A DNA stretch of 64,000 nucleotides. Origin: Escherichia coli. GTDB lineage: Bacteria; Pseudomonadota; Gammaproteobacteria; Enterobacterales; Enterobacteriaceae. The stretch is from NCBI RefSeq assembly GCF_036507355.1, contig NZ_AP027877.1. One strand, given 5' to 3'. Made by a program: the position numbers and the translations under genes. The notes beneath the pieces were generated by a model, which was not told where the DNA came from, ran no database searches, and was given only the letters and a program-made list of their open reading frames with translations. Positions 33,867 to 54,042 of the stretch are shown piece by piece; the first letter of the stretch is position 1, and every line of letters starts with the position of its first letter.

Positions 33867-34965
33867 ATGTTTGAAATTAATCCGGTAAATAATCGCATTC
33901 AGGACCTCACGGAACGCTCCGACGTTCTTAGGGGGTATCTTTGACTACGACGCCAAGAAAGAGCGTCTGGAAGAAGTAAACGCCGAGCTGGAACAGCCGG
34001 ATGTCTGGAACGAACCCGAACGCGCACAGGCGCTGGGTAAAGAGCGTTCCTCCCTCGAAGCCGTTGTCGACACCCTCGACCAAATGAAACAGGGGCTGGA
34101 AGATGTTTCTGGTCTGCTGGAACTGGCTGTAGAAGCTGACGACGAAGAAACCTTTAACGAAGCCGTTGCTGAACTCGACGCCCTGGAAGAAAAACTGGCG
34201 CAGCTTGAGTTCCGCCGTATGTTCTCTGGCGAATATGACAGCGCCGACTGCTACCTCGATATTCAGGCAGGGTCTGGCGGTACGGAAGCACAGGACTGGG
34301 CGAGCATGCTTGAGCGTATGTATCTGCGCTGGGCAGAATCGCGTGGTTTCAAAACTGAAATCATCGAAGAGTCGGAAGGTGAAGTGGCGGGTATTAAATC
34401 CGTGACTATCAAAATCTCCGGCGATTACGCTTACGGCTGGCTGCGTACAGAAACCGGCGTTCACCGCCTGGTGCGTAAAAGCCCGTTTGACTCCGGCGGT
34501 CGTCGCCACACGTCGTTCAGCTCCGCGTTTGTTTATCCGGAAGTTGATGATGATATTGATATCGAAATCAACCCGGCGGATCTGCGCATTGACGTTTATC
34601 GCGCGTCCGGCGCGGGCGGTCAGCACGTTAACCGTACCGAATCTGCGGTGCGTATTACCCACATCCCGACCGGGATCGTGACCCAGTGCCAGAACGACCG
34701 TTCCCAGCACAAGAACAAAGACCAGGCCATGAAGCAGATGAAAGCGAAGCTTTATGAACTGGAGATGCAGAAGAAAAATGCCGAGAAACAGGCGATGGAA
34801 GATAACAAATCCGACATCGGCTGGGGCAGCCAGATTCGTTCTTATGTCCTTGATGACTCCCGCATTAAAGATCTGCGCACTGGGGTAGAAACCCGCAACA
34901 CGCAGGCCGTGCTGGACGGCAGCCTGGATCAATTTATCGAAGCAAGTTTGAAAGCAGGGTTATGA
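33867..34965 (+). CDS. prfB: Peptide chain release factor 2, made by a programmed +1 frameshift: join(33867..33941,33943..34965)
   Basis: ATG at 33867 gives [25 protein letters not shown], then an in-frame TGA at 33942-33944. The +1 frame continues as [12 protein letters not shown]... to 34965, including the GGQ motif (SGAGGQHVN). Confidence 0.95.
33930..33945 (+). promoter_or_regulatory. prfB autoregulatory +1 frameshift cassette
   Basis: agggggtat ctt tga c: an internal SD-like AGGGGG placed 3 nt before the CUU UGA C slippery/stop site. Confidence 0.9.
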
Positions 34966-34974
34966 GGAACCAAC

Positions 34975-36492
34975 ATGTCTGAACAACACGCACAGGGCGC
35001 TGACGCGGTAGTCGATCTTAACAATGAACTGAAAACGCGTCGTGAGAAGCTGGCGAACCTGCGCGAGCAGGGGATTGCCTTCCCGAACGATTTCCGTCGC
35101 GATCATACCTCTGACCAATTGCACGCAGAATTCGACGGTAAAGAGAACGAAGAACTGGAAGCGCTGAATATCGAAGTCGCCGTTGCTGGCCGCATGATGA
35201 CCCGCCGTATTATGGGTAAAGCGTCTTTCGTTACCCTGCAGGATGTGGGTGGCCGCATTCAGCTGTACGTTGCCCGTGACGATCTGCCGGAAGGCGTTTA
35301 CAACGAGCAGTTCAAAAAATGGGACCTCGGCGACATCCTCGGCGCGAAAGGTAAACTGTTCAAAACCAAAACCGGCGAACTGTCTATCCACTGTACCGAG
35401 CTGCGTCTGCTGACCAAAGCACTGCGTCCGCTGCCGGATAAATTCCACGGCTTGCAGGATCAGGAAGCGCGCTATCGTCAGCGTTATCTGGATCTCATCT
35501 CTAACGATGAATCCCGTAACACCTTTAAAGTGCGCTCGCAGATCCTCTCTGGTATTCGCCAGTTCATGGTGAACCGCGGCTTTATGGAAGTTGAAACGCC
35601 GATGATGCAGGTGATCCCAGGCGGTGCCGCTGCGCGTCCGTTTATCACCCACCATAACGCGCTGGATCTCGACATGTACCTGCGTATCGCGCCGGAACTG
35701 TACCTCAAGCGTCTGGTGGTCGGTGGCTTCGAGCGTGTATTCGAAATCAACCGTAACTTCCGTAACGAAGGTATCTCCGTACGTCATAACCCAGAGTTCA
35801 CCATGATGGAACTCTACATGGCTTACGCAGATTACAAAGATCTGATCGAGCTGACCGAATCGCTGTTCCGTACTCTGGCACAGGATATTCTCGGTAAGAC
35901 GGAAGTGACCTACGGCGACGTGACGCTGGACTTCGGTAAACCGTTCGAAAAACTGACCATGCGAGAAGCGATCAAGAAATATCGCCCGGAAACCGACATG
36001 GCGGATCTGGATAACTTCGACTCTGCGAAAGCGATTGCTGAATCTATCGGTATCCACGTTGAGAAGAGCTGGGGTCTGGGCCGTATCGTTACCGAGATCT
36101 TCGAAGAAGTGGCAGAAGCACATCTGATTCAGCCGACCTTCATTACTGAATATCCGGCAGAAGTTTCTCCGCTGGCGCGTCGTAACGACATTAACCCGGA
36201 AATCACAGACCGCTTTGAGTTCTTCATTGGTGGTCGTGAAATCGGTAACGGCTTTAGCGAGCTGAATGACGCGGAAGATCAGGCGCAGCGCTTCCTGGAT
36301 CAGGTTGCCGCGAAAGATGCAGGTGACGACGAAGCGATGTTCTACGATGAAGATTACGTTACCGCACTGGAACATGGCTTACCGCCGACAGCAGGTCTGG
36401 GGATTGGCATCGACCGTATGGTAATGCTGTTCACCAACAGCCATACCATCCGCGACGTTATTCTGTTCCCGGCGATGCGTCCGGTGAAATAA
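34975..36492 (+). CDS. lysS: Lysyl-tRNA synthetase (constitutive)
   Basis: 505 aa, matches K-12 LysS. Confidence 0.97.
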
Positions 36493-36510
36493 GCATTACG
36501 TTATGCTCAC

Positions 36511-36535
36511 AACCCCGGCAAATGTCGGGGTTTTT
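36511..36535 (+). terminator. lysS terminator, directly abutted by the IS1 end
   Basis: aaccccg-gcaaatgt-cggggttttt. The IS1 inverted repeat starts at the next base. Confidence 0.75.
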
Positions 36536-36550
36536 GGTAATGACTCCAAC

Positions 36551-37054
36551 TTATTGATAGTGTTTTATGTTCAGATAATGCCCGATGACTTTGTCATGCA
36601 GCTCCACCGATTTTGAGAACGACAGCGACTTCCGTCCCAGCCGTGCCAGGTGCTGCCTCAGATTCAGGTTATGCCGCTCAATTCGCTGCGTATATCGCTT
36701 GCTGATTACGTGCAGCTTTCCCTTCAGGCGGGATTCATACAGCGGCCAGCCATCCGTCATCCATATCACCACGTCAAAGGGTGACAGCAGGCTCATAAGA
36801 CGCCCCAGCGTCGCCATCGTGCGTTCACCGAATACGTGCGCAACAACCGTCTTCCGGAGCCTGTCATACGCGTAAAACAGCCAGCGCTGGCGCGATTTAG
36901 CCCCGACATAGCCCCACTGTTCGTCCATTTCCGCGCAGACGATGACGTCACTGCCCGGCTGTATGCGCGAGGTTACCGACTGCGGCCTGAGTTTTTTAAG
37001 TGACGTAAAATCGTGTTGAGGCCAACGCCCATAATGCGGGCTGTTGCCCGGCAT
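36551..37054 (-). CDS. insB: IS1 InsB' frame (transposase InsAB' via -1 frameshift at the A6 run 36992-36997)
   Basis: 167-aa frame overlapping the insA 3' end. The motif ttaaaaaac lies on the IS1 coding strand. Confidence 0.9.
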
Positions 37055-37248
37055 CCAACGCCATTCATGGCCATATCAATGATTTTCTGGTGCGTACCGG
37101 GTTGAGAAGCGGTGTAAGTGAACTGCAGTTGCCATGTTTTACGGCAGTGAGAGCAGAGATAGCGCTGATGTCCGGCGGTGCTTTTGCCGTTACGCACCAC
37201 CCCGTCAGTAGCTGAACAGGAGGGACAGCTGATAGAAACAGAAGCCAC
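36973..37248 (-). CDS. insA: IS1 InsA
   Basis: 91 aa, [43 protein letters not shown]... Confidence 0.95.
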
Positions 37249-37504
37249 TGGAGCACCTCAAAAACACCATCATACACTAAATCAGTAAGTTGGCAGCATC
37301 ACCCGCATCAGGATGGGAAATAGGGTAAAAAAGTAAGGAACTTCGATACCTCTACTACAGTGAATATTTTGCTGATGATACTTCCCTTTGCCAAATGAAA
37401 TTAACCTCTTTCTCTATTACCGCGTTTTTCCAGAAGCAAGAGATTGGGTATCAAGAGGCTGGCTGCTATGATATGGCGTCTTGTTTTTTAAGCGAGGAAA
37501 GATT

Positions 37505-38260
37505 TTGAGTGCGGGACGCCTGAATAAAAAATCTCTGGGTATCGTGATGTTGTTATCGGTTGGACTGCTTTTGGCGGGCTGTTCGGGTAGCAAATCATCC
37601 GATACAGGAACGTATTCCGGCTCCGTTTACACCGTGAAACGGGGGGATACGCTATATCGTATTTCGCGCACCACGGGAACCAGCGTAAAAGAACTGGCGC
37701 GACTGAACGGCATTTCCCCCCCTTACACTATTGAAGTAGGTCAGAAACTAAAACTGGGTGGGGCGAAAAGTAGCAGTAGTACACGTAAATCAACCGCCAA
37801 ATCAACGACTAAAACCGCATCGGTTACACCGTCATCAGCGGTACCGAAATCTTCCTGGCCGCCAGTAGGGCAACGTTGTTGGTTATGGCCAACGACAGGG
37901 AAAGTTATCATGCCGTATTCGACAGCAGATGGCGGCAATAAAGGGATTGATATCTCAGCTCCACGGGGTACACCTATTTACGCCGCGGGTGCAGGAAAGG
38001 TGGTGTATGTGGGCAACCAGCTGCGTGGCTACGGTAATCTCATCATGATTAAACACAGTGAAGATTACATTACGGCTTACGCCCATAATGACACGATGCT
38101 GGTAAATAATGGGCAAAGCGTGAGGGCTGGGCAAAAAATCGCCACCATGGGGAGCACGGATGCGGCATCTGTTCGCCTGCATTTCCAGATTCGTTACCGT
38201 GCAACGGCAATTGATCCGCTACGTTACTTGCCGCCGCAGGGCAGCAAGCCAAAATGCTGA
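37505..38260 (+). CDS. ygeR: LysM/M23 peptidase-family lipoprotein YgeR
   Basis: 251 aa from a TTG start, with SD gagga 7 nt upstream. Lipobox LLAGC, a LysM domain (YTVKRGDTLYRISR) and an M23 domain. Matches K-12 YgeR. Confidence 0.9.
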   Translation: MSAGRLNKKSLGIVMLLSVGLLLAGCSGSKSSDTGTYSGSVYTVKRGDTLYRISRTTGTSVKELARLNGISPPYTIEVGQKLKLGGAKSSSSTRKSTAKSTTKTASVTPSSAVPKSSWPPVGQRCWLWPTTGKVIMPYSTADGGNKGIDISAPRGTPIYAAGAGKVVYVGNQLRGYGNLIMIKHSEDYITAYAHNDTMLVNNGQSVRAGQKIATMGSTDAASVRLHFQIRYRATAIDPLRYLPPQGSKPKC

Positions 38261-38293
38261 TGGCGAATTAATCAGCAGTCAGCAGCGCGGCAC

Positions 38294-38321
38294 TTGCTAA
38301 GGAGAGCGTAAGGTTTATAAT
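38294..38321 (+). promoter_or_regulatory. Putative sigma70 promoter of glyU
   Basis: TTGCTA-N16-TATAAT, with the -10 element ending 17 nt before the mature tRNA 5' end. Confidence 0.5.
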
Positions 38322-38338
38322 GCCTTACGCATCTCGAA

Positions 38339-38412
38339 GCGGGCGTAGTTCAATGGTAGAACGAGAGCTTCCCAAGCTCTATACGAGGGTTCGATTCCCT
38401 TCGCCCGCTCCA
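38339..38412 (+). tRNA. glyU: tRNA-Gly (anticodon CCC)
   Basis: gcgggcgtagttcaatggtagaacgagagcttCCCaagctctatacgagggttcgattcccttcgcccgctcca. 74 nt, cloverleaf-compatible, CCA encoded. Confidence 0.95.
38390..38412 (+). repeat. attL core (glyU 3' end)
   Basis: 23 bp identical to 42585-42607. Confidence 0.85.
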
Positions 38413-38546
38413 TGACCTTTCTTAAAGTACTCCAACCTACTGAATCCTAAGGGATACGGCTTTAAGCCTTCCGCTAGTTTTACTCACTGTAACCAACACT
38501 GTAACTAAATTTGTTGAAATAGTGAGCAGACTTAAGATCTCAGTAC

Positions 38547-40178
38547 ATGCTCAACTCAAAAACCTATCTTTATCAGCGCAATGGCGTCTTTTATATCCGC
38601 CTCAGGATGAAGTCCACAGATCGCCTGACCGTTTCACATCCTTCCCATAGCCGTTATAAAATAGCGTCAGTATCACTACGGACTAAGGATAGACGTACAG
38701 CTATGGCTTACTCACGGCAAATCAAGGCAGCACTTAGGGCAATCCATGCAGACAGACCCAACGCCTCCTATGAGGAAATGAGGGAACACCTGAGGGACAT
38801 CGCAGAGTGGGAGTTGTCTACAGGTCGTTCAGACCTCTTCGAGCCAGATATGAGAGATCTATACCGTGACCAGTATGGGGAAGTGGGAGAGAATCTTGTC
38901 CATGCTCTGGCAAGCGAGCCACTGACTATTGACCAGCATCGCTATATTAATGAGGCTCTTAATGTACTCAAGGCCTGCATGAAGCGCATTGAAGCGGGAG
39001 ATAGCCAGCCACTTATAGATTATATAGATGGATTTGATGCTGCTGCTGGGGCTAATGGCCAAGCCTCTGCAACTCTATCTGTTAGTGCTCCCCAAAAAAC
39101 AAGCATTACTGAAGGCAAACACTGCGTAACCGTTGCTTCTCTCTTTGAGCAGTACGAGCAGGAAAACGCCCAGAACTGGAAGCCAGCAACATTACGAGAA
39201 AACAAAGCTTCTCATGCTGCGTTAATCGAAGTTTTTGATTATCTGGGCCTCAATGCTGACGCCAATGTGTTAGCTCGTGCGGATATGCTTAGGGTTCGGG
39301 ATATCCTCCAGCAATTGCCGAAGAATCGTAAGCAGCGTTTCAAAGATGTTCCGTTGGTTGACCTGCTAGGTCGTGAGGATAAAACCGATTGTCTGGATAT
39401 TGTTACCATCAATAATAAATATCTCATTAAGATGGCGGCTGTTTTCAAGTGGGCCGTGCGTAATGACCTGATTAAAAAGAATATGACAGAAGGGCTAGAG
39501 CTTAAGGTTCCCCAGCGTAAAGCCTCTGAGGCGCGTAATGCTTTCTCTACGGAGCAGGTAGGACAACTACTGGCTGCCGCCCAAGTTTACTCACAGAGAC
39601 CTTCTGGTAAGCCGTATCATTATTATGTTACCGCCTTGGCTGCTATCACTGGGGCGAGACTCAATGAAATAGCCCAACTACAGGTCAAAGACGTCAGGAC
39701 CACTGAGGCGGGAACCGTTTATATTCATATCAATGAAGACGATAGTAGTCTACCCGGTAAGAGCATCAAGAACGCTCATAGTGACCGCTGTGTGCCTCTG
39801 GTCGATGGGGCCTATGGTTTTATATTGGCTGACTTTATGAGGTTGGTTGAGACCCGTAGAGGCGCTGATGGTGATGACGCTATGGTGTTCGATGGTCTTC
39901 GCCTCATGAAGAACGGTTACGGTGAGCAGGTGAGTAAATGGTTTAATCGGACGTTGTTGCCTAAAGTCCTCGCAGACCGTAGCGGCTTAGCGTTTCACTC
40001 GTTTAGACATACAGTTGCGACCCAGTTAAAACAACATGGGGTCGAGTTGGCGTATGCACAGGCGATCATGGGGCATAGTTCAGGGTCTATTACTTACGAC
40101 CGTTATGCTAAAGAGGTTGAGGTTGATAGACTGGTCAATGTGATGGCTGATGTTTATAAGGAGGTTGTGGCCCCTTAA
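38547..40178 (+). CDS. Tyrosine recombinase / integrase (large, 543 aa)
   Basis: The C-terminal catalytic signature is visible: ..GARLNEIAQL.. (R), HSFRHTVATQL (HxxR), GHSSGSITYDRY (H..Y). The N-terminus YLYQRNGVFYIRLR is typical of integrase N-terminal arm-binding domains. Confidence 0.85.
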   Translation: MLNSKTYLYQRNGVFYIRLRMKSTDRLTVSHPSHSRYKIASVSLRTKDRRTAMAYSRQIKAALRAIHADRPNASYEEMREHLRDIAEWELSTGRSDLFEPDMRDLYRDQYGEVGENLVHALASEPLTIDQHRYINEALNVLKACMKRIEAGDSQPLIDYIDGFDAAAGANGQASATLSVSAPQKTSITEGKHCVTVASLFEQYEQENAQNWKPATLRENKASHAALIEVFDYLGLNADANVLARADMLRVRDILQQLPKNRKQRFKDVPLVDLLGREDKTDCLDIVTINNKYLIKMAAVFKWAVRNDLIKKNMTEGLELKVPQRKASEARNAFSTEQVGQLLAAAQVYSQRPSGKPYHYYVTALAAITGARLNEIAQLQVKDVRTTEAGTVYIHINEDDSSLPGKSIKNAHSDRCVPLVDGAYGFILADFMRLVETRRGADGDDAMVFDGLRLMKNGYGEQVSKWFNRTLLPKVLADRSGLAFHSFRHTVATQLKQHGVELAYAQAIMGHSSGSITYDRYAKEVEVDRLVNVMADVYKEVVAP

Positions 40179-40180
40179 GG

Positions 40181-40219
40181 ATGACCATAGGCGATGACCA
40201 TAGGCGATGACCATAGGCG
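40181..40219 (+). repeat. Tandem 13-bp repeat atgaccataggcg x3 (plus a partial fourth)
   Basis: Three perfect head-to-tail copies begin 3 nt after the integrase stop. Each contains the reverse complement of the CTATGGTC motif that recurs at 40239-40291 and 40821-40848. Confidence 0.9.
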
Positions 40220-40330
40220 ATGACACTTGCTACTATTCCTATGGTCCCCTTTGTGGTCCTATGTGGTCCTGTGTGACCCTTTGTGTGGTCATGTTTTGAC
40301 TCATAGTTTTCACTACTTGTCAAGCATATT

Positions 40331-40353
40331 TAATACGACTCACTATAGGGAGA
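40331..40353 (+). promoter_or_regulatory. Phage T7 RNA polymerase class III promoter consensus, 23/23 match
   Basis: TAATACGACTCACTATAGGGAGA is read directly, with an AT-rich -22..-18 region (atatt). Predicted +1 is the G at 40348. It points toward the cargo genes at 41158 and 41845. The sequence match is certain. Its function in vivo is inference. Confidence 0.85.
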
Positions 40354-40585
40354 AGGGACACAAAAAGTTTTCTCTCTCTGTCTCTCTCTATGATGACACT
40401 TGCTACTACTTCAGGTAGCTTTAACTCTAACCGTAACTTATCGCATCCTTTCAGGGGCGGGATGACCAATTACAGACACCAAGCGTTCTACTTAAAATGA
40501 ATGCTTCCTGTGTGCTCTGGGTCAGTCGATAAGTGAATAGCCTTAGACATCATATTAATTATGGTCTCTAACCCCTACAGGGGCT

Positions 40586-40729
40586 TAACTTTAAGTATTA
40601 ACTTATAGTCTACTTAAAGACACAATTAAAGATTAACTTAAAGTATTAAATTATAGATTAATTAAAGACCAATTAAAGAGTAACTTTAAGTATTAACTTA
40701 TAGTCTACTTAAAGACACAATTAAAGATT
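40586..40729 (+). repeat. Three tandem ~47-bp AT-rich iteron-like repeats
   Basis: The 49-bp string taactttaagtattaacttatagtctacttaaagacacaattaaagatt is identical at 40586-40634 and 40681-40729. A degenerate copy (40635-40680) lies between them. All are rich in TTAAAG submotifs. Confidence 0.85.
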
Positions 40730-40922
40730 GACTCTAAGGGAATACCTTAAGAGGTGATGATATTCATAATAATCAATCACCAAACCTATAGGTCTCCTCA
40801 AGGCATTACCCAGAAGCTAACTGTATGGCCCTGTATGGTCCTGTACGCCATTCTTTAGGATGCCATGTAGTTTCGTATGGCCTGATGCCTAGCGTGGCTC
40901 AGAGACCCTCCCAGTAGTAAAT

Positions 40923-40945
40923 CAATACGACTTACTAATAGGAGA
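40923..40945 (+). promoter_or_regulatory. Degenerate T7-like promoter
   Basis: caatacgacttactaataggaga matches the T7 consensus at 18/23 ungapped, or better if a 1-nt insertion near -3 is allowed. It lies 213 nt upstream of the 41158 ORF. Confidence 0.35.
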
Positions 40946-41157
40946 CACACTCCGAACCACTCACCACGTGTCTCTCAAAGTTCCACCTCTCGCGCTTCAC
41001 CATACAGTAGCTCCGCACAGCTACGACACAATCATTCATTCAATCTCAAAGTCATTCTGTTTGCATCCTGTTGTCCTGCTGGTCTCCCTTCGCTTGGGGA
41101 CTTTGAGTGGGCCAGTAGGGGGCGGTTTAGTGTGCATATTTAAAAGGTAACCAAGCA

Positions 41158-41721
41158 ATGAACAATAAACATAAACATGCAGGTCATATTATCACTATTG
41201 AAGGCCACAGCTTTAAGTCTAATGAGTCTGGCATGTGGAATCTTACAGAAATATGGAAAATCCTCGGATTACCTAACAATAAGCTACCCTCTCAGTGGCG
41301 CGGCAAGGTAACAAAGAGGCTCACCGACATGCAAAAAATGCACGTCGAGAAGATTGGTATTGAAAGCATAACCTACGCAGACAAACAGGCTACCCTCAAG
41401 TATGCAGGATGGGTCTCTGAAGATTTCGAGGACATGGTCTATGCAGCCTTTGAGGCTATCCTTGAGATGCCTGAAGTTGCCACGGTCGTTGCTAATAAGA
41501 TGGTCGAACTTGGCTATCACGCTGAAGCTGAGCTATTGGAACGTCATAAGGACGACTATAGAGAAGCTATGCAGACCCTTAAAAAGATTGGTAAACGTGT
41601 TGACGGCAGGAAGCCTGAGCGCATCTACAAGGCCGTACTTAACGGTAATCTGACGAAATTTCAAGGGTTATCCATGATTTCTCGCAGCAGTGTCTGGTAC
41701 GCCCGAACAGTGAATCTATGA
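41158..41721 (+). CDS. KilA-N-like DNA-binding domain protein (tentative)
   Basis: 187 aa. The N-terminal pattern is ..ITIEGHSFKSNESGMWNLTEIWKILGL..P.QW.. followed by ..TYADKQATLKYAGWVSEDFEDMV.. This resembles the KilA-N/Bro-type fold as I remember it. The C-terminal half is helical and basic. Confidence 0.5.
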   Translation: MNNKHKHAGHIITIEGHSFKSNESGMWNLTEIWKILGLPNNKLPSQWRGKVTKRLTDMQKMHVEKIGIESITYADKQATLKYAGWVSEDFEDMVYAAFEAILEMPEVATVVANKMVELGYHAEAELLERHKDDYREAMQTLKKIGKRVDGRKPERIYKAVLNGNLTKFQGLSMISRSSVWYARTVNL

Positions 41722-41844
41722 TGGCTATCGATCACGATAGATGCCAGCGATCAATTTCAGGTTACCGATCGAAACAAACGATCAGCACGATGGTTGCAAT
41801 CGGATATCATATTGACACTTGTCTGACATCCTGAAGGTATCAAT

Positions 41845-42318
41845 ATGTTTGGGCTTTTTAAGAAAAAGGCAAAAGCGGAAAGGTGTTATGATGTAACACG
41901 CATTCAATACGAGCTGGTTGTAATGTCATCTAAGCTGATAAAAAAACAGACCGATATGTTCAAAGTAATAAAAGGGGAGCGAGAGGAGGCTTTAGGAGAC
42001 CCTTTATTATCAGCAGGGTATATAACGCCATGGGTCATTGGATATTGCACTGGTCTCCTGGATGCAGTGACTCAGACGGAGGCTAACAGGATGGCATTTA
42101 CATCAGAAATGCTTGGGCTTCTTTTTGCTGCAGTTTTCGGTGATGATAAGTCTCTTGAGGCCATGGGAACTTATATAGCCTGTAACGAAGCCTCCTCACC
42201 AGACCATGGATTTCATGTTACGTATGAGCTTTATATGTCTGGTCTAGCGAAAGCGTTTAATGAGGTATGTGAGGATAAACCTGCGATAGGACTTCTGAAC
42301 TATTTAATGCAGGATTGA
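41845..42318 (+). CDS. Hypothetical protein (157 aa), no recognisable family
   Basis: Intact ORF on the same strand as the T7 promoter and the 41158 ORF. It is preceded by a GATC-rich spacer. Confidence 0.55.
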   Translation: MFGLFKKKAKAERCYDVTRIQYELVVMSSKLIKKQTDMFKVIKGEREEALGDPLLSAGYITPWVIGYCTGLLDAVTQTEANRMAFTSEMLGLLFAAVFGDDKSLEAMGTYIACNEASSPDHGFHVTYELYMSGLAKAFNEVCEDKPAIGLLNYLMQD

Positions 42319-42584
42319 AAATTTCCCACAAAAATCTCAGTGCCTATCTAACAGTAATAACCCTGCAACATTCCCCCGTATACCTCCAGAAGTTATCCAG
42401 AAGCCGAAGTAGGTATCCTGTCATGTATTTGAATCATCAAAGTTGTTCGTTCTATTCCTCTTTAGGGAATATTACAGCCCTACAGCCTTGACCAGAGATC
42501 ACTTGATGTGTAACCATAACTGTAACCAAAAGGATTCATCATCCTTTAAGAAACAATTGGTTAGTGAGTGATTGTCTTCGATAC

Positions 42585-42607
42585 TTCGATTCCCTTCGCC
42601 CGCTCCA
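42585..42607 (+). repeat. attR of islet 1, and remnant att junction preceding island 2
   Basis: ttcgattcccttcgcccgctcca, identical to the last 23 nt of glyU. Confidence 0.85.
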
Positions 42608-42771
42608 AACTCAAGTCTCCTGAAGTCTACCAAACTCAATTTTTCCTTGATAAATCAGCAGTTATAGCTTTCTATTAGTCTATTGAACTCAATTGTACTC
42701 CCCCAGGGTCAAGCTCAATGTGGGGGTATGGATGGGGGTATAATTGTACCCCCTGCTGAGAGGTACCCCCA

Positions 42772-43998
42772 ATGAAGCTGACTGCTCGTCAGGTTGAAAC
42801 TGCGAAACCCAAAGAGAAGCCCTACAAACTGGCCGATGGTGGTGGGCTTTACCTGCTGGTTAATCCCAACGGTAAAAGATACTGGCGTCTCAAATACCGT
42901 TCGTTAGGTAAAGAGAAGCTGCTCGCTATTGGCGTTTATCCCGATGTTTCTTTAGCTGAGGCCCGAAGTAAGCGTGAGGATGCTAAAAGAACATTAGCGG
43001 CTGGCAACGATCCCTCTCTTGAACGAAAAATTGAGAAACTTAGTCGTCAACAAGACGCTGAAAACTCGTTTGAGGCTATCACACGGGAGTGGTATCAGCG
43101 TCGCTATGACCGCTGGTCTGTCTCCTACCGCGAAGAAATGCTGAGAACCTTTGAGAAAGATGTATTTCCTTATATCGGTCACAGGCCAATCAAAGATATC
43201 AAGCCGATGGAGTTGCTTGCAGTTCTTTCAAAGATAGAAGCACGAGGGGCAACAGAGAAAGTCCGCAAGGTTCGTCAGCGTTGTGGAGAGGTCTGGAAGT
43301 ATGCCGTTGTGACTGGGAGGGCCGAGTACAATCCAGCACCTGATCTAGCCAGCGCCGTGAGTCCTCATGAGAAAGAGCACTATGCTTTTTTAACCCAGGA
43401 TGAATTGCCTGAGTTTCTTCGGACTCTGAACGCCTATGCCGGTAGTGTGCTTGTTAAGATTGCGATGCAATTGCTCATTTTAACAGGAGTAAGGCCAGGG
43501 GAGTTGAGGCAAGCGGAGTGGCAGGAGTTTGATTTTGAGAAAAAGGTTTGGAATGTACCAGCGGAACGTATGAAAATGCGCCGCCCTCATCTTGTTCCAT
43601 TATCAAGCCAGGCAATTGACCTGCTTAATCAACTTAAACCCATAACGGGAGCAGGAGCGTTATTATTCCCAGGACGTAATAATCCTAAGAAACCGATGAG
43701 CGATATGGCATTGACTGTGTTGGTCAGGCGTATCGGCTATGCCGGGCGCGTTACAGGGCATGGATTCCGCCACACGATGAGTACCATTTTGCATGAGCAG
43801 GGATTCAACTCGGCCTGGATTGAGTTACAGCTGGCTCACGTCGATAAGAACTCAATTCGTGGGACGTATAACCATGCTCAATATTTGGAAGGTCGGCGGG
43901 AGATGATGCAGTGGTATGGAGATTTCATCGGTCAAGCAGGCAAATCCGGATCATCGCTAGCTTATGCAGCTATTAGCTTGACTGCTGAATTAGAGTGA
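42772..43998 (+). CDS. P4-family tyrosine integrase
   Basis: 408 aa. The N-terminus MKLTARQVETAKPKEKPYKLADGGGLYLLVNPNGKRYWRLKYR is typical of the DUF4102 arm-binding domain. Catalytic residues: GVRPGELRQ (R), HGFRHTMST (HxxR), IRGTYNHAQY (Y). Confidence 0.9.
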   Translation: MKLTARQVETAKPKEKPYKLADGGGLYLLVNPNGKRYWRLKYRSLGKEKLLAIGVYPDVSLAEARSKREDAKRTLAAGNDPSLERKIEKLSRQQDAENSFEAITREWYQRRYDRWSVSYREEMLRTFEKDVFPYIGHRPIKDIKPMELLAVLSKIEARGATEKVRKVRQRCGEVWKYAVVTGRAEYNPAPDLASAVSPHEKEHYAFLTQDELPEFLRTLNAYAGSVLVKIAMQLLILTGVRPGELRQAEWQEFDFEKKVWNVPAERMKMRRPHLVPLSSQAIDLLNQLKPITGAGALLFPGRNNPKKPMSDMALTVLVRRIGYAGRVTGHGFRHTMSTILHEQGFNSAWIELQLAHVDKNSIRGTYNHAQYLEGRREMMQWYGDFIGQAGKSGSSLAYAAISLTAELE

Positions 43999-44008
43999 GA
44001 AGGGGCAA

Positions 44009-44039
44009 GTTGAGCCTCTTCGCTGAGAAGAGGCTCAAC
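44009..44039 (+). terminator. Hairpin after the integrase
   Basis: gttgagcctcttc-gctga-gaagaggctcaac, a 13-bp stem. A T7 run lies 10 nt downstream. Confidence 0.5.
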
Positions 44040-44195
44040 GTGAACCTATTTTTTTGGGAGTTAATACTTTTTGCAATTTTTTTTTTCGTGCCGTTGGATG
44101 TAAAGATCTGTGGGGGTTAGGGAAGAAAATCATGCTATGTTAGTCTTTGAGGAGTGAGTCAAAATGTTATAACTTTTTCAAAGAGGCGTTACATC

Positions 44196-45131
44196 GTGAA
44201 AGTCGTTTTTAATGTTAATGGTAAAAAAGTTCCGCTCAAATCTCTGCAATATATAAGTAAAGCAAATCAACTCGAAGTTATGCGGAATTGGTTTTTTGAG
44301 AATTTTGAAGATCCCGCGAACTCTTGCCCGTATGAATCCCGTGAAGGCGGGTATGCTTACATTTATGGGGGCCCATACGAAGCAAGTGAAGAGTTGCAAG
44401 CGATGTTTGAAGGACACGTGAAATTTGATTATATCCAAGAATTAGTCAATGAATTACAAGAACAGTGCTATGAATGGTCTGGTAATTCAAATAATATTAA
44501 TGATTGGTACGATGAAGACTTGTATGATGCTGTTACATCTTCTGAACATCCTTTTTCTAAGTTCGTTGAAAGCATTGATGGAATAAAATTGCTGTCTAAA
44601 GGCGAATTTAAAGATAAACAAAAAGATCATCTGCTTAGCATCCTATATATTAATGTCATTACAGCCCTGGAAACACTTTATGTTGAGTTATTTATTAACT
44701 CTATAGATAAAAACGACTCATATCTTGCTGACTTTATAGAAAAAGGTAAGACGGAATTTAAGGTAAATAAAGGAATATTGGCTTTGCCATTCAAAGGAGA
44801 AACTATTGAAAACATGAGGGCGCAATTAATTAAGGTAATTAAAGAGCATTTGATTAGTGCAAGTTGGCATAGTACAAACAAAGTTGTAGGACGTTATAAA
44901 GCTACATTTGATATAAAAGTACATAAAGAGTGGCCAATAGATGTGATCGAAATAGCAACTCAAAAGCGTAATCATTTAGTCCATCGTGGCGGGAAAGATA
45001 AAGAAGGTAATTCGGTAGTGATTACTGAACAGGATTTAGAAATGTTGCTGGATCACGCACAATCTCTTGGAGAAAAATTGTTTGATAGCCTTGAGGTGGC
45101 ATTACAGAAAAAAGATGAGAATGAATTTTGA
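44196..45131 (+). CDS. Candidate HEPN-domain (Rx4H) protein; the track ORF begins at 44154
   Basis: GTG at 44196 is preceded by aagagg at good spacing. The C-terminal region contains ..ATQKRNHLVHRGGKD.. (R-N-x-x-x-H), the hallmark HEPN RNase motif. The N-terminal domain is unassigned. Confidence 0.4.
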   Translation: MKVVFNVNGKKVPLKSLQYISKANQLEVMRNWFFENFEDPANSCPYESREGGYAYIYGGPYEASEELQAMFEGHVKFDYIQELVNELQEQCYEWSGNSNNINDWYDEDLYDAVTSSEHPFSKFVESIDGIKLLSKGEFKDKQKDHLLSILYINVITALETLYVELFINSIDKNDSYLADFIEKGKTEFKVNKGILALPFKGETIENMRAQLIKVIKEHLISASWHSTNKVVGRYKATFDIKVHKEWPIDVIEIATQKRNHLVHRGGKDKEGNSVVITEQDLEMLLDHAQSLGEKLFDSLEVALQKKDENEF

Positions 45132-45206
45132 GTCTCGGGGTAGGTTGATAGTGCTACCGATAACGAGCAAGCAAATGATACTCGGCAGGCAGTGCCTGCC
45201 GGAGGA

Positions 45207-46910
45207 TTACTTTTTACTTCCAAATTGAATGCCGAGAAGTTTATTCTCTGCTTTATCGCCACGTAGAGTAAGAACAATTTTTGATTTCAGTTCTAACATT
45301 TCGATTTCAGATAAAGTTGTTTCCATAGCATTAAAGTTTTCAGTGTTTAAAGATGCTATATATTGCTTTCCGCTTCGTTTTAATGACTGATTGACAAATG
45401 AGAACCATCTTGCGCGAACACCTGGATCTATATCAGCAAAAAGACGGTTATCATGCCATAGCATATCCATGGCATGGTTTTCACCACATGTAAATACTAA
45501 CCAGTCAAAGCATAATATCCTAGCATCATTGATCCCATCCGAATCATCACCCTCGATTTGGATGCTTAGATCATAACGAATTTTGTTGTCACCAGTATTA
45601 ACATCCAAAACTATTCCTGCTGGTACCCTTGGGTACATTATTTCTGCGAGCTCAGCAAAAATTTTATCGTATTCTGAAAGAGGATTTGTAGAAGCATAGT
45701 TTACCGCTAATCTGTCTTGTTCAACTTTTCGTTCTCTTAGATTTTGAGCTTTCTGTTGAAGGTTAATAGAAAAATTTAAATAATCATGTAACCTTTCTTT
45801 TTCTTCTTTAAATTCAGCTAGTTGTCTAGCTATGACTGCGTATTCATCAAATGCTTTCTTGCCTTGCAGGGATTCCAAATATGAATCACGTAATGCTGAA
45901 ATATCCTTAATGTCAATTTTAAGAGATTCAATTTCTAACAAAAGTTTTACTTTATCATTTTCAAGTCTTTTCTTTCTGTTAAAAGATAATGATTTGTGAA
46001 AATTTTCAACTGACTCAAAATGGGCCAATGTTTCTGGCTTGAAAATCTCTTGTAAGCCATTGTACAGTTCAAGAAGCTCTTCTCTTGAAATGTCAGGGTG
46101 TTCTAATAAAGTTTTTTCTATATTATTTACTTTAAATTCAGCTATATTTTTGTTTTTTTCAACTTCTCGTAATTTTATAGTTAAACTGTTTGTTTCATTC
46201 TCAATAGCTCTGTATTGCTCGTGAACTTGAAATGCATTCAGTTCATCCTGCAGTCTTGGGATCTCTCTTTCTAGCCACTCATAGCGTACTTTAGGTTGAG
46301 AGCCTGCTCTAAACATGTCTTTTAGAATATCATCGTCTTGCCAATTTTTTAGCGATTGACTTACTTTATCCAGCTCTTGCTTATTATTTCTTTTAGATAA
46401 TATTAAATTATGATCTATACCGAGAAGAAATGCGGTACGAAGCAATGCTTCAAAGTCTTGCTCCTTTTTTGTCCTAGTTGGACTGATGCAGTCATCTCTG
46501 GTATATCGCGAAAAACGCTTAAATAAAGATCTGAATGATAAATACGGAATGTTATTCTCAAGATTAAATATTCCTATTTTATCTAATAAATCTTTAAATG
46601 CTTTTAAAGATATTGTTTTGTCATTTAATAATAATTTTTTTCCATTGCCCGTTCTAGATATTAAGTACTCAACTCCATTATGAGAAAAAAGTAAAGAGAA
46701 CCACCAATCTGGAACTGCTGAAGTTAATTTTTTATCAGCATTAGCTCCTAAACAATGTTGAATGAGACCGAGAATAAGTGTCTTACCGACTCCGTTACTA
46801 CTGCCTTCTTTTTCTTTAGAGCTATCACCAATGATCAACGTTAGTCCTGTATCATTGAAATGCACTGGATGAAAAGTTGGCTGATCGCAAGTTAAGCGAA
46901 TTAACTTCAT
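45207..46910 (-). CDS. SMC/ABC-type ATPase with coiled-coil insert (LmuB / ABC-3C ATPase-like, DUF2326-like)
   Basis: 567 aa. Walker A is SSNGVGKT. There is a long K/E-rich coiled-coil middle, and the C-terminal block is ..DDSDGINDARILCFDWL... Its start codon abuts the stop of the upstream small ORF (taaATG). Confidence 0.6.
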   Translation of the reverse strand: MKLIRLTCDQPTFHPVHFNDTGLTLIIGDSSKEKEGSSNGVGKTLILGLIQHCLGANADKKLTSAVPDWWFSLLFSHNGVEYLISRTGNGKKLLLNDKTISLKAFKDLLDKIGIFNLENNIPYLSFRSLFKRFSRYTRDDCISPTRTKKEQDFEALLRTAFLLGIDHNLILSKRNNKQELDKVSQSLKNWQDDDILKDMFRAGSQPKVRYEWLEREIPRLQDELNAFQVHEQYRAIENETNSLTIKLREVEKNKNIAEFKVNNIEKTLLEHPDISREELLELYNGLQEIFKPETLAHFESVENFHKSLSFNRKKRLENDKVKLLLEIESLKIDIKDISALRDSYLESLQGKKAFDEYAVIARQLAEFKEEKERLHDYLNFSINLQQKAQNLRERKVEQDRLAVNYASTNPLSEYDKIFAELAEIMYPRVPAGIVLDVNTGDNKIRYDLSIQIEGDDSDGINDARILCFDWLVFTCGENHAMDMLWHDNRLFADIDPGVRARWFSFVNQSLKRSGKQYIASLNTENFNAMETTLSEIEMLELKSKIVLTLRGDKAENKLLGIQFGSKK

Positions 46911-47216
46911 TTAACTTTCCTTATTTTTTAATTTGTCATAATTGCAACAGATTGGCATTATTCTGTTTTCATTATCTAGCGTTATTTGTTTGATGCAAAA
47001 AAGAATGTCTACGGCAAGTATAAATTGTGTAAAAGAGGGCGTGATTATCGTTGATTTATTTTTCCGCTCTATTTTTGTCCATAGTTCTTCTATGGATACC
47101 GGTCCATCAATTAACGAACGGATGTATCCTGCAATCGCAATTAGGGAGTTACTAAACCTAACATGCTTATGTGGCAGAAGCATTGCTTGGATGTTCATAA
47201 GCATCACATGTCTCAA
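46911..47216 (-). CDS. Small middle-component-like protein (LmuC / ABC-3C MC-like); possibly the 3' part of a frameshifted ~148-codon gene
   Basis: 101-aa ORF with a TTG start, translationally coupled to the ATPase. A 62-aa ORF in another frame (47167..47355) fills the gap back to the upstream gene. Confidence 0.4.
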   Translation of the reverse strand: MRHVMLMNIQAMLLPHKHVRFSNSLIAIAGYIRSLIDGPVSIEELWTKIERKNKSTIITPSFTQFILAVDILFCIKQITLDNENRIMPICCNYDKLKNKES

Positions 47217-47390
47217 AATATTTAGCTAAAATTAACTCTGCAGCAAATCGATAACTCGCGACCGCACTTGTGGGAACTTGCGGGGGAAGGAGTTTATCTA
47301 TCATCCAAGTATATCTTAAATCTGCATAATTGTGGTTATCTTCAGTTATCGCCAATTTACTTTTTGCATAAGTATCTCTAACTTCTTGAG

Positions 47391-48173
47391 CTATAGTTTG
47401 TTCAAGACCACAAGACCATTATCAACAGAATCTAAAAATTCATTTATCAAATATAGTTGATAGCTAAAAGATTCCAGCCTGCTTTTTATTGGTTTTGTAA
47501 TACCATTTATTTTTATTTTATCTTCGAAGTCCGGGGCTGTTTCACTTAAAAAATTCATGGGTGAAGAAGATTTTTGTGCTAAAAAAGTCAATACTTCACC
47601 AACAGCTCGAGTATCTGTAAAGTCTAAATTAACCTCAGGAATGAAACCTACAATATCTTGCTTTTCACCCTCGGATAATGACATAAACTTTTGAAGGAGC
47701 TCCATCCCACCCATTGCACCTGCGTGATTAAGACTTTTACTGATTGCAAGTGTATTTAATGAAAGTCCAACAGGTGCTGGAATACCCTTGAAATAATCAT
47801 TCATTACAAAAGTATATTTTGATACTTTCCCCCATTTGGCGACTAATTTATCAAAGTCGCCAATCGATTTATTAACAGCTTCTAGCTCTTTGGTTTGATT
47901 TGAAGGTTTAGGTCCATAAACTTGGAAGTAATGAGCCTCATGAGCAATCCACCCATCATTCCCGCCATCTCCCCAGTTTCCCCAAGGGGAAACAGCTTGA
48001 AAGCCAGGAGTCGCGTATTGCATAACCTTCGAAAAAAGCGCCTGAAAACTGTCTCCCATACATTCATGTACTTTTAACCGAAAGAACTGTCTGTAGAGGT
48101 AATCTTGCTGTGTCGAACTCATTTTCCTCTCATCCATGATGAACACTTTTGATGATAATATCCTCTCATTCAT
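47391..48173 (-). CDS. Putative effector of the three-gene system, with an N-terminal Mrr-like PD-(D/E)xK motif (LmuA-like); start may be M18
   Basis: 260 aa. The GNWGDGGNDGWI motif resembles the GDGGIDG motif of the Mrr catalytic domain. The C-terminal half is helical. It is the first gene of the operon. Confidence 0.4.
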   Translation of the reverse strand: MNERILSSKVFIMDERKMSSTQQDYLYRQFFRLKVHECMGDSFQALFSKVMQYATPGFQAVSPWGNWGDGGNDGWIAHEAHYFQVYGPKPSNQTKELEAVNKSIGDFDKLVAKWGKVSKYTFVMNDYFKGIPAPVGLSLNTLAISKSLNHAGAMGGMELLQKFMSLSEGEKQDIVGFIPEVNLDFTDTRAVGEVLTFLAQKSSSPMNFLSETAPDFEDKIKINGITKPIKSRLESFSYQLYLINEFLDSVDNGLVVLNKL

Positions 48174-48282
48174 TGTTGTAAACCTATGATTAGCAAAATT
48201 GGAGATGCTTTCACTTTAGAGTTGGTATCTAAAGGTTATAAATTATCAAAACAGGTTGTATAGATATCAAATTGAATACGAT

Positions 48283-48310
48283 TTGACATATATGTTAATC
48301 TGATTAGTAT
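48283..48310 (+). promoter_or_regulatory. Putative ars promoter
   Basis: TTGACA-N16-TAGTAT, located ~25 nt upstream of the arsR ATG. Confidence 0.4.
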
Positions 48311-48332
48311 CAGAGAAAAACAGGAGTCCTTA

Positions 48333-48683
48333 ATGTCGCTTATCCCCCTACAACTCTTCAAAAACCTCTCCGATGAAACCCGTTTGGGCATCGTGTTGCT
48401 GCTTAGAGAGATGGGAGAGCTGTGCGTGTGCGACCTTTGCACTGCGCTAGAACAGTCGCAGCCCAAGATCTCCCGTCATCTGGCAATGCTCCGGGAAAGT
48501 GGTCTATTGCTGGATCGTAAACAGGGCAAGTGGGTTCACTACCGCTTATCCCCGCATATTCCTTCCTGGGCCGCTCAGGTGATTGAGCAGGCCTGGTTAA
48601 GCCAACAGGACGATGTGCAGGCCATCGCCCGTAAGCTGGCATCAGCAAACTGCTCTGGTAGCGGTAAGGCTGTTTGTATCTAA
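48333..48683 (+). CDS. arsR: Arsenical resistance operon repressor
   Basis: 116 aa. Contains ELCVCDLC, the As(III)-binding motif. Near-identical to the remembered R773 ArsR. Confidence 0.95.
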   Translation: MSLIPLQLFKNLSDETRLGIVLLLREMGELCVCDLCTALEQSQPKISRHLAMLRESGLLLDRKQGKWVHYRLSPHIPSWAAQVIEQAWLSQQDDVQAIARKLASANCSGSGKAVCI

Positions 48684-48730
48684 AAAATTTGCCTGAACAT
48701 ATATGATTTTTCGAATGCGAGGTGTTCAGA

Positions 48731-49093
48731 ATGAAAAAGTTAACGGTGTTTGACCCGGCAATGTGCTGCAGTACCGGCGTATGTGGCTCAGATGTCGATC
48801 AGGTTCTGGTTGATTTTTCTGCTGATGTGCAGTGGCTGAAAGGACGTGGCGTACAGGTTGAACGTTACAACCTGGCGCAGCAGCCCATGAGCTTTGTTCA
48901 AAATGAGAAAGCGAAAGCATTCCTCGAAGCATCTGGAGCAGAAGGGCTTCCGTTACTGCTGTTGGACGGTGAAACGGTGATGGCAGGGCGATACCCAAAA
49001 CGCGCTGAGCTGGCTCGCTGGTTCGGTATACCGCTGGAGAAGGTAGGTTTAGCTCCCACCAGCTGCTGTGGTGGTAATACTTCCTGTTGCTGA
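48731..49093 (+). CDS. arsD: Arsenic metallochaperone / trans-acting repressor ArsD
   Basis: 120 aa from MKKLTVFDPAMCCSTGVCG.., ending CCGGNTSCC. Confidence 0.95.
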   Translation: MKKLTVFDPAMCCSTGVCGSDVDQVLVDFSADVQWLKGRGVQVERYNLAQQPMSFVQNEKAKAFLEASGAEGLPLLLLDGETVMAGRYPKRAELARWFGIPLEKVGLAPTSCCGGNTSCC

Positions 49094-49110
49094 GTATGTC
49101 AGGAGGACAT

Positions 49111-50862: not shown

Positions 50863-50909
50863 TTTTTTGGCATATACAGGGCGGCAAAGTCGCCCTGTCA
50901 GGAGGTTTT

Positions 50910-52199: not shown

Positions 52200-52211
52200 T
52201 GAGATACTGAT

Positions 52212-52637
52212 ATGAGCAACATCACCATTTATCACAACCCGGCCTGCGGCACGTCGCGTAATACGCTGGAGATGATCCGCAACAGTGGTACTGAACCGAC
52301 CGTAATTCTTTACCTTGAGACTCCACCGTCTCGCGATGAGCTGGTCAAACTCATTGCAGATATGGGCATTTCAGTCCGGGCTTTGCTGCGCAAAAACGTC
52401 GAGCCTTATGAAGAACTGGGGCTTGCAGAAGATAAGTTTACTGACGATCAGTTAATCGGCTATATGCTGCAGCATCCGATCCTGATTAACCGCCCGATTG
52501 TGGTGACACCGTTGGGAACGCGCCTGTGCCGTCCTTCCGAAGTGGTACTGGATATTCTTCCGGATGCGCAAAAAGGCGCATTTGCAAAGGAAGACGGCGA
52601 GAAAGTCGTTGATGAAACAGGTAAACGATTGAAATAA
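52212..52637 (+). CDS. arsC: Arsenate reductase (glutaredoxin-coupled)
   Basis: 141 aa, MSNITIYHNPACGTSRNTLEMIR... Confidence 0.95.
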   Translation: MSNITIYHNPACGTSRNTLEMIRNSGTEPTVILYLETPPSRDELVKLIADMGISVRALLRKNVEPYEELGLAEDKFTDDQLIGYMLQHPILINRPIVVTPLGTRLCRPSEVVLDILPDAQKGAFAKEDGEKVVDETGKRLK

Positions 52638-52642
52638 ATATA

Positions 52643-52662
52643 AAGGGGGCTGATGCCCCCTT
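52643..52662. terminator. Bidirectional hairpin between arsC and the acetyltransferase gene
   Basis: aagggggc-tgat-gccccctt. Confidence 0.5.
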
Positions 52663-52671
52663 ATTCCTGCC

Positions 52672-53208: not shown

Positions 53209-53332
53209 CGTGTTACTCCAGTAATGGTGTTTTACAAACTACCGGAATTCGCGACAGCAGGTTAAGTACTTAAACTTATAACCTGTATAAGCAAAAGTTT
53301 GGCTGCAGTAAATGGGGCCGTAGCCCCATCTA

Positions 53333-54034: not shown

Positions 54035-54042
54035 ACCAGCCC

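Follow-up and report, generated by a model that had tools for sequence, protein, structure and literature searches.

How two integrative elements came to stand in series behind a single tRNA gene, and what the smaller of them does there, are the questions raised by the glyU locus of a 64,000-nucleotide stretch of Escherichia coli contig NZ_AP027877.1 (assembly GCF_036507355.1), hereafter the window. The only tRNA gene in the window, found with ARAGORN at 38339-38412 on the plus strand, is tRNA-Gly(CCC); it scores 71.6 bits with the Rfam tRNA model and has the same sequence as K-12 glyU. The gene upstream is actS (ygeR), which identifies the locus as the E. coli glyU site adjoining the ETT2 region. 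Behind the tRNA gene lie a 4.2-kb element, islet 1 (38413-42607), and a larger element, island 2, that starts at 42608. We conclude, with a probability of roughly 70%, that the two are independent elements in series at glyU and that islet 1 is a defence islet that responds to T7-group phages.

Two elements with a common core at glyU

The final 23 nt of glyU (38390-38412) form the attL copy of an attachment (att) core, TTCGATTCCCTTCGCCCGCTCCA. A second exact copy lies at 42585-42607 on the plus strand, where it is the attR of islet 1 and simultaneously the attL-side junction of island 2. Shuffled sequences are expected to contain no such pair, and no third copy occurs in the window, even when 2 to 3 mismatches are allowed. 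The original prediction had described this layout (glyU, islet 1, the 23-bp copy, and then a P4-type integrase) as a tandem of two different integrative elements with the same 23-bp core, and both the arrangement and the core of its interpretation are confirmed by the exact repeats and by the junctions described below. Core repeats also flank relatives of the islet in other E. coli and in Klebsiella, Pectobacterium, Proteus, Serratia, and Rouxiella, with the exact 23 bp in several E. coli and Klebsiella and 16 to 20 matching bases in others. Because variant attR copies in some relatives match only the last 16 to 18 nt of the tRNA gene, exchange may occur within approximately its last 16 nt, which suggests that the shared functional core may be just this segment. 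Each element would thus have entered by site-specific recombination inside roughly the last 16 to 23 nt of glyU.

Islet 1 is a complete small element, with an intact recombinase, exact 23-bp repeats of the tRNA 3' end at its boundaries, and paired TGTAAC modules in both arms. Between the core copies are a gene for a 543-amino-acid (aa) tyrosine recombinase, ∼1 kb without open reading frames (ORFs), a 187-aa KilA-N-like ORF, and a 157-aa ORF. The recombinase ORF (38547-40178, plus strand) is intact and begins 135 nt after the tRNA. Its product matches PHROG 1 (integrase) and, over residues 334-522, Pfam PF00589 (67 bits, cut-off 27.1 bits); the ∼330-aa N-terminal part has no Pfam family match. 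The 408-aa integrase of island 2 has in common with it a 41-residue catalytic box and nothing else, and the original prediction had noted that the two, unrelated in size, target the same core. Relatives of the islet 1 integrase, 78 to 99% identical in DNA, adjoin glyU in 384 of the 5,426 complete E. coli genomes that served as the comparison set for this locus, and some islet carriers have a pseudogenised integrase or one interrupted by an insertion sequence (IS).

The left (P') arm of islet 1 (38413-38546) contains TTTCTTAAAG at 38418-38427, TGAATCC at 38441-38447, and the paired module TGTAACCAACACTGTAAC at 38488-38505. The right (P) arm (42509-42584), given on the same plus strand, contains the paired module TGTAACCATAACTGTAAC at 42509-42526, GGATTCA at 42532-42538, and CTTTAAGAAA at 42544-42553. 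The left-arm motifs TTTCTTAAAG and TGAATCC are inverted copies of those in the right arm, and the two paired modules, just inside the islet ends, share one orientation. They are the sole two TGTAAC-N6-TGTAAC pairs on either strand of the window, compared with a chance expectation of ∼0.03 (arithmetic from the 30 single hexamers in the window). The left arm is kept in E. coli and Klebsiella relatives, and paired modules occur in both arms of relatives from five further genera, including Pectobacterium, Proteus, Serratia, and Rouxiella. The modules had been proposed as plausible arm-type sites; they are real, and their conservation across genera strengthens their candidacy.

An exact T7 promoter in islet 1

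The most unusual feature of islet 1, which the original prediction missed, is an exact phage T7 class III promoter, TAATACGACTCACTATAGGGAGA, at 40331-40353 on the plus strand. It is unique in the window, where none is expected. All 23 of its 23 positions (-17 to +6) are identical to phi6.5, phi9, phi10, phi13, phi17, and phiOR of NC_001604; the predicted +1 is the G at 40348, and the promoter is directed toward the cargo genes. A degenerate second T7-type promoter, CAATACGACTTACTAATAGGAGA, with 5 mismatches, lies at 40923-40945 on the same strand, at a place where relatives have a better copy. As in T7 origins, an AT-rich repeat follows downstream, but here the promoter is chromosomal and has no other T7 sequence around it: when the 1-kb non-coding stretch was aligned sensitively to the complete T7 genome, only the promoters matched, and a search of phage DNA with the region returned only a 43-nt promoter-level match in Salmonella phage Vi06. 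The likeness of the TTAAAG repeats of the islet to T7 CCTAAAG arrays is one of style only.

Among representative genomes of 185,579 species, 9 contain the exact T7 23-mer. Eight of these matches are on contigs of ≤6.7 kb from unrelated taxa and are probably vector-derived. The ninth is on the chromosome of K. pneumoniae ATCC 13883, where an islet of the same family stands at tRNA-Gly(CCC) and the T7 promoter is placed between two K11-type promoters. The sole genuine chromosomal exact T7 promoter in the set is thus that of an islet family copy. We considered contamination as the source of the T7 promoter and rejected it, as a near-identical non-coding stretch is present in dozens of natural isolates. 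A crude scan showed no excess of sigma-70-like promoters around the cargo genes.

Phage-type promoters across the islet family

Each of the 18 full-length relatives that were examined (6 from E. coli, others from Klebsiella, Pectobacterium, Proteus, Pseudomonas fluorescens, Serratia, and Rouxiella, and 5 IMG/VR loci) has phage-type promoters at this place and in this orientation. They follow the integrase gene or the gene next to it, precede a KilA-N/Rha-like gene, and often number several per islet. Three E. coli islets (L009, L007, and L012) have T7-type promoters, and those of E. coli EC31 and K. pneumoniae combine K11-type, T7, and a third type. A further E. coli islet (L010) shares the ACTAAACTATCACTATAGG type with Rouxiella. 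The Pectobacterium islet has three copies of ATTAACGACTCAC..., that of Proteus two of AATTAACCCACACTATAGGGAGA, that of Pseudomonas fluorescens two of TTAAAAACCCTCAC..., which we take to resemble the gh-1 consensus, and that of Serratia has AATTGCGACTCACTATAGGGAGA. Up to three exact T7 promoters at 120-bp spacing are present in the five IMG/VR loci; in two of them, L028 (UViG_2660238309) and L032 (UViG_2869936548), three exact copies spaced by 120 to 121 bp stand directly after the integrase.

Across these islets the initiation region, CACTATAGG, is constant and the specificity region differs, even among E. coli copies. Four of the five promoter variants tested occur in multiple same-strand copies in viral contigs of 38 to 42 kb. 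A 38.5-kb viral contig has the Proteus-type promoter 5 times, always on the same strand; the K11-type promoter is found in at least 25 contigs of 39 to 42 kb, the ACTAAACTATCAC-type promoter is found in ∼20 contigs of ∼40 kb, and the Pseudomonas-type promoter has 6 copies in a 41.5-kb contig. The Serratia-type promoter gave single matches only, in contigs that appear to be proviral calls, and is uninformative. To judge from these viral contigs, the islet promoter variants are real phage promoters.

Islet 1 therefore has company: it belongs to a widespread family of glyU mini-islands that is apparently undescribed. We found no description of phage promoters in these islets in the literature searched, which leaves many subscription journals outside its coverage. 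We also propose, at what we would call even odds, that the family is an undescribed class of mini-island that senses infection via the phage's own promoters, with a repertoire (T7, K11-type, T3-like, gh-1-like, and others) that tracks the T7-like phages of the host and serves as either an immune trigger or the switch of a minimal satellite.

The placement of some relatives deserves separate mention. The islets at loci L032 and L031 adjoin tRNA-Gly(TCC), at the end of a Met-Arg-Thr-Gly tRNA cluster, instead of tRNA-Gly(CCC). The Pectobacterium islet (AODT01000007.1, 2574-4949) lies immediately 3' of a pair of Ogr/Delta-type genes, the 3.3 kb upstream containing no tRNA, and may be serially placed behind a P2/P4-like element. 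At 7610-7660 of its locus, Rouxiella sp. S1S-2 has, after the islet attR, a second islet-type left arm, agacacttcttaaagcttcc..., which is a same-family tandem or a remnant of one and gives an attP-like P-core-P' junction in the chromosome.

Leader RNA and cargo genes

The DNA between the T7 promoter and the cargo genes is itself conserved. A non-coding block downstream of the promoter (40427-40608, plus strand), containing CCTTTCAGGGGCGGGA and the small hairpin AACCCCTACAGGGGCTT, is 88 to 92% identical in relatives whose integrase DNA is 83 to 93% identical, and its motif is also present in the Klebsiella, Serratia, and Proteus copies. It is followed at 40585-40738 by an AT-rich (21% G+C) tandem repeat of 3.2 copies of 48 bp with an 11- to 12-nt TTAAAG-type sub-repeat; relatives have AT-rich, ACTTAAAG-rich stretches at the matching position. 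Upstream of the promoter, relatives cease to align at 40165 and align again from 40330. The intervening 40180-40330 is repeat-rich filler, with 3.5 copies of GATGACCATAGGC at 40180-40224 (Tandem Repeats Finder) and then 10-nt repeats of the GGTCC/TGGTC type.

Immediately before the cargo, a conserved irregular hairpin of ∼100 nt (41050-41149, plus strand) ends at the ribosome-binding site of the KilA-N-like gene, its base extending to the purine-rich part of that site, and forms a structured leader. Its architecture is common to the individual folds from all genera tested, and the window copy has a weakened outer stem. A covariance model of the leader matched exactly once per islet locus and had no match elsewhere in the window, in T7, at the K-12 locus, or at a locus with island 2 alone. 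Computed on an alignment fitted to that model, 86% of cells were paired, compared with 40 to 51% in slid controls, and 20 of 34 pairs showed compensatory change, compared with 7.5 ± 1.8 in shuffles. The leader has no Rfam match (only the tRNA was matched in 37000-48000 at E ≤ 1), and it is present, unannotated, in 341 of the 5,426 E. coli genomes. Its form recalls what we take to be the shape of T7 RNase III processing sites.

Cargo gene 1 (41158-41721, plus strand) encodes the 187-aa protein, whose N-terminal domain is weakly KilA-N-like and whose C-terminal half is helical. The Pfam KilA-N match (E = 9.5e-4) is below the curated cut-off, and PHROG 129, "transcriptional regulator," matches at 8e-10; 94 homologues are spread across Enterobacterales and Pseudomonas. 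An AlphaFold2 model with a predicted local distance difference test (pLDDT) score of 83.5 had no fold match in the PDB. Cargo gene 2 (41845-42318, plus strand) encodes the 157-aa protein, which is all-helical and has 25 homologues and no Pfam, NCBIfam, PHROG, or PADLOC match; its AlphaFold2 model (pLDDT, 49) was too poor for a fold search. Compared with phage genomes, the cargo proteins gave weak Ant-like matches in Vibrio phages only and none in T7-like phages. The cargo varies between islets and includes DUF6971 proteins, 360- to 400-aa proteins, and Rha-like proteins, a variability like that of defence hotspots.

In most relatives, the gene right after the integrase, for a 209- to 219-aa DUF4145 protein, matches PD-T7-4 over its full length (PADLOC, E ∼1e-100). 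PD-T7-4, now renamed RAZR, is an RNase with a zinc finger and a HEPN domain; experiments have established that it protects against T7 and T3, whose infections it aborts upon sensing the portal protein (PMC13017515). Vassallo et al. (2022, PMC9519451) noted its frequent overlap with an integrase gene. The RAZR/PD-T7-4 loci of these two papers are of the same islet family as islet 1, from which the window copy differs in having no RAZR gene. Neither paper mentions the phage-type promoters, the leader, the KilA-N-like module, or the glyU att structure.

A proposed phage-responsive role and its rivals

We read islet 1 as a phage-responsive islet because it has an exact T7 promoter, because a promoter stands at the same position in all 18 relatives, and because of the association with RAZR and the conserved leader. 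Upon infection by a T7-like phage, the phage RNA polymerase would initiate at 40348, and transcription would run through the leader, the 187-aa gene, and the 157-aa gene and possibly continue through attR into island 2. The cargo products would then act against the phage or the infected cell, with abortive infection or another form of defence as the most likely outcome. In most relatives the promoter module is paired with the constitutive anti-T7 RNase RAZR/PD-T7-4, a partner that the window copy has lost.

Several observations weigh against this interpretation. The cargo has no recognised toxic or defence domain, with a weak PD-T4-2_B match (1e-4) and no fold match. The window islet has no RAZR/PD-T7-4 ORF, the repeats at 40180-40330 occupying its place, and its second promoter (40923) is degenerate. 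Part of the Shine-Dalgarno region appears to be base-paired within the leader, and transcription alone may therefore yield no protein; the statistics for its covariation were computed on a model-fitted alignment. The crudeness of the sigma-70 scan means that host-driven expression of the cargo is possible. Use of the same core by island 2 is supported by junction positions and by one full-length copy, the distal repeat of which is imperfect.

Small integrase-bearing elements that are apparently wired to an infecting phage are known, and islet 1 resembles P4 (with its P2 Ogr-activated promoters), PICI/SaPI, PLE, and PICMI in this respect; as for PLE and PICMI, the proposed phage partner would be virulent. 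Islet 1 would differ from such satellites in using direct mimicry of a promoter for the single-subunit RNA polymerase of the phage rather than an activator or anti-repressor. Unlike helper-activated satellites, it has no replication, capsid, or packaging genes, and its mobilisation is putative.

The comparison invites the suggestion that islet 1 is, instead of or besides a defence element, a satellite of T7-like phages, which is transcribed by the phage RNA polymerase, whose promoter and AT-rich repeat serve as a T7-type origin, and whose DNA, once excised, is amplified and packaged as concatemers in T7 capsids. We consider this unlikely. Packaging in T7 capsids would account for spread without conjugation genes, and the element, though small and lacking transfer genes, is near-identical in E. 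coli EC31 and K. pneumoniae ATCC 13883. T7 origins consist of a promoter plus AT-rich DNA, which the promoter and AT-rich tandem repeat of islet 1 resemble, and in a circular form the promoters would drive the integrase too. The 165-nt filler also has the highest density in the window of TGGTC (7, compared with a mean of 0.34 per 165 nt), which we take to be the T7 primase recognition site, but this enrichment is a consequence of the tandem repeat that contains the motif and carries little weight. Searches with Pfam, PHROGs, and NCBIfam identified no replication, capsid, or packaging gene, and islet 1 has no alignable similarity to the T7 ends or concatemer junction. The attP junction (right arm, core, and left arm) was absent from IMG/VR and Joint Genome Institute (JGI) metagenome contigs, itself a weak negative; a 4,248-bp, seemingly circular JGI contig of suitable size for a circular islet was rejected as an ordinary chromosomal fragment. 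Judging by the identifiers, the IMG/VR matches to the integrase are probably proviral calls made in isolate genomes and not in viromes. Defence is therefore more likely than a satellite life cycle, given that replication and packaging functions, similarity to the T7 ends, and any trace of an excised form are all lacking.

It is very improbable that the T7-type promoters are inert relics or chance matches, such as scars of recombination with T7-like phages, in an islet that is a decaying integrase remnant. The missing RAZR gene and degenerate second promoter of the window copy would suit such decay, as would the damaged integrases of some carriers. Against it, an exact 23-mer is not expected by chance, and position and orientation are kept in 18 of 18 full-length relatives from at least 7 genera while the flanks diverge. 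The specificity region varies with the initiation region kept, the variants match real phage promoter sets, and no other phage-derived sequence is nearby.

Independent insertion of islet 1 and island 2

Comparison with other E. coli genomes, which the original prediction had called for, revealed an empty site, single occupancy by either element, and both orders. The glyU site of K-12 is empty. An islet-1-type element stands alone in NMBU-W12E19, where the sequence after the attR core is identical to the K-12 flank, and islet 1 is alone with a variant flank in D72 and EC24. Island 2 follows glyU directly, without the islet, in L26 and HH107. The order is reversed in E. coli 23S01245-7 (glyU, island 2, core, islet, core, backbone), in which the middle core copy, TTCTAATCCC..., has two mismatches and the final core is exact. 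Behind islet 1 in ET734 stands a third, unrelated segment. Matches to the left part of the window end at 42608 and matches to the right part begin at 42585, the exact edges of the core; the former endpoint is that of islet-1-only genomes and the latter that of island-2-only genomes.

Because the empty, single, reverse-order, and third-partner states have identical junctions, islet 1 and island 2 are independent insertions into the regenerated glyU 3' end. The two elements also have separate histories, as the closest relatives of each differ: islet 1 of the window is 99.4 to 99.6% identical to the solo copies in D72 and SBF22 and ∼90% identical to the 23S01245-7 islet, and island 2 is 99.9% identical to island 2 of 23S01245-7. 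The exact pair of islet 1 and island 2 seen in the window was found in 0 of the 5,426 complete E. coli genomes.

The original prediction had further held that islet 1, as the element nearest the intact tRNA, arrived last. Successive insertion stands, as the occupancy states show, but this part does not: the structure does not reveal which element came last, because insertion of islet 1 into the attL of island 2 gives the same product as insertion of island 2 into the attR of islet 1. Both orders occur in nature. Close relatives do not settle the matter either, as the lysS-IS1-actS joint of the window is found in no complete genome.

We regard two further readings as highly improbable: a single composite island that comprises both segments and is inherited whole, and formation of the pair when a donor fragment entered through homologous recombination. 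In their favour, island 2 has no distal att copy here, no excision circles were observed, and actS plus islet 1 match D72-type genomes at 99.4% compared with 98.6 to 98.8% for actS and island-2 carriers. Inheritance as a unit is contradicted by the occurrence of each segment alone with junctions exactly at the core and by the reversed order in 23S01245-7, the right side would offer recombination merely 23 bp of homology, and each element has its own integrase and arm repeats.

K. pneumoniae ATCC 13883 was considered as a second example of the same tandem pair and rejected, as no P4-type integrase follows the attR. The ∼97 nt past that attR (6992-7090 of the locus) are ∼90% identical to window 42608-42704, and the first ∼30 nt of this island-2-like left end are common to the Proteus and Serratia copies. 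The ∼97 nt in K. pneumoniae are thus the remains of an island-2-type element, or else such elements carry with them an old stretch of native flank.

Island 2 and the flanking deletions

The left arm of island 2 (42608-42771) contains direct copies of TGGGGGTAT at 42721 and 42733 on the plus strand and GGGGGTA at 42747 and 42764 on the minus strand; four of the five GGGGGTA copies in the window fall in this arm. The full-length island 2 of 23S01245-7 has two more direct copies of TGGGGGTAT in its right arm. The 408-aa integrase (42772-43998, plus strand) has P4-type architecture, with Arm-DNA-bind_3 (PF13356), Phage_int_M (PF22022), and Phage_integrase (PF00589) domains that all pass their cut-offs; its NF007246 score, 307 bits, is under the 434-bit cut-off. 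These integrase domains next to a tRNA gene are also those of CP4-57 and CP4-44, from which island 2 differs in its ABC-3C-type defence genes and two ars clusters and in the loss of its distal half in the window.

The retained part of island 2 (43999-54584) is 99.9% identical to 23S01245-7 and 96% identical to L26. It begins with a HEPN/RES-NTD-like gene (44154-45131), whose 325-aa product matches HEPN/RES-NTD1 weakly and PHROG 17908 strongly, followed on the minus strand by ABC-three-component-type defence genes (45207-48173; Pfam DUF2326; PADLOC PDC-M68B, 7.7e-73). Together, 44154-48173 is likely a defence cluster, and it appears to occupy a variable defence slot, because HH107 has a SIR2 gene and an ATPase at the same position. 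One of the ABC-three-component genes is an ORF at 47391-48173 here and is annotated at ∼47164-48111 in 23S01245-7 and L26; the window gene may be shorter, or shifted by a frameshift. Beyond the cluster are the arsenic-resistance genes arsRDABC (48333-52637), a GNAT gene, and a truncated second ars cluster.

Island 2 is broken off at ∼54584, where an IS3-family element (54585-55815, minus strand; terminal inverted repeats TGAATCGCCACGG...; transposase PHROG 157, 1.6e-114) joins the second ars cluster to the middle of ygeH. The deletion at this joint took with it ∼10 kb at the distal end of island 2, the far att copy, and the ETT2 genes as far as ygeH; alignment breaks show that most of ETT2 is gone from the window. 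Mobility requires both att junctions, and the window contains no distal att copy of island 2. Because the distal half and the distal att copy have been deleted, island 2 is probably fixed in place, a truncated and immobilised remnant that would be unable to excise. A full-length island 2 of ∼22 kb with a distal core exists in 23S01245-7 and ends in YagK/YfjJ, GTPase, DUF932, antirestriction, RadC, DUF987, and YeeU/CbtA genes, a further likeness to islands of the CP4-57 and CP4-44 kind.

A second rearrangement lies on the other side of glyU. An IS1 copy (36536-37303, within the region 34684-37303) joins the end of lysS to a point 200 bp upstream of actS. The ∼35 kb that we understand to separate lysS and actS in K-12, presumably the idi...xdhABC/ygf purine-catabolism block, is thus absent from the window. 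Elsewhere in E. coli, IS1 copies are found close to idi, uacT, and actS, and none of the complete genomes shares the lysS-IS1-actS joint.

Significance

The glyU gene is a recognised integration hotspot (PMC4313913, PMC2808357, bioRxiv 10.1101/860726), and a tandem array there is ordinary, textbook tRNA-hotspot behaviour. Insertion at the 3' end, regeneration of the tRNA, and shared direct repeats are as in other cases of serial occupancy in E. coli (GI-glyU/ETT2, pheV, and leuX), from which the array does not differ in any essential way; the particularities are that the second element is truncated and that the pair is without a counterpart in the comparison set. The array matters little beyond documenting the dynamics of glyU.

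The promoters matter more. They give context, and perhaps a second arm, to the RAZR/PD-T7-4 defence, and the cargo genes beside them are probably anti-phage effectors. The segment 41050-41149 defines a new conserved structured leader RNA. The islet family is carried by ∼6 to 7% of complete E. coli genomes, and it may be relevant when T7-like phages are used therapeutically against E. coli, Klebsiella, and Proteus. If our interpretation is correct, islet 1 would be a natural host element that uses a phage-encoded RNA polymerase as an infection sensor, a principle that, to our knowledge, has so far been used only in synthetic circuits.

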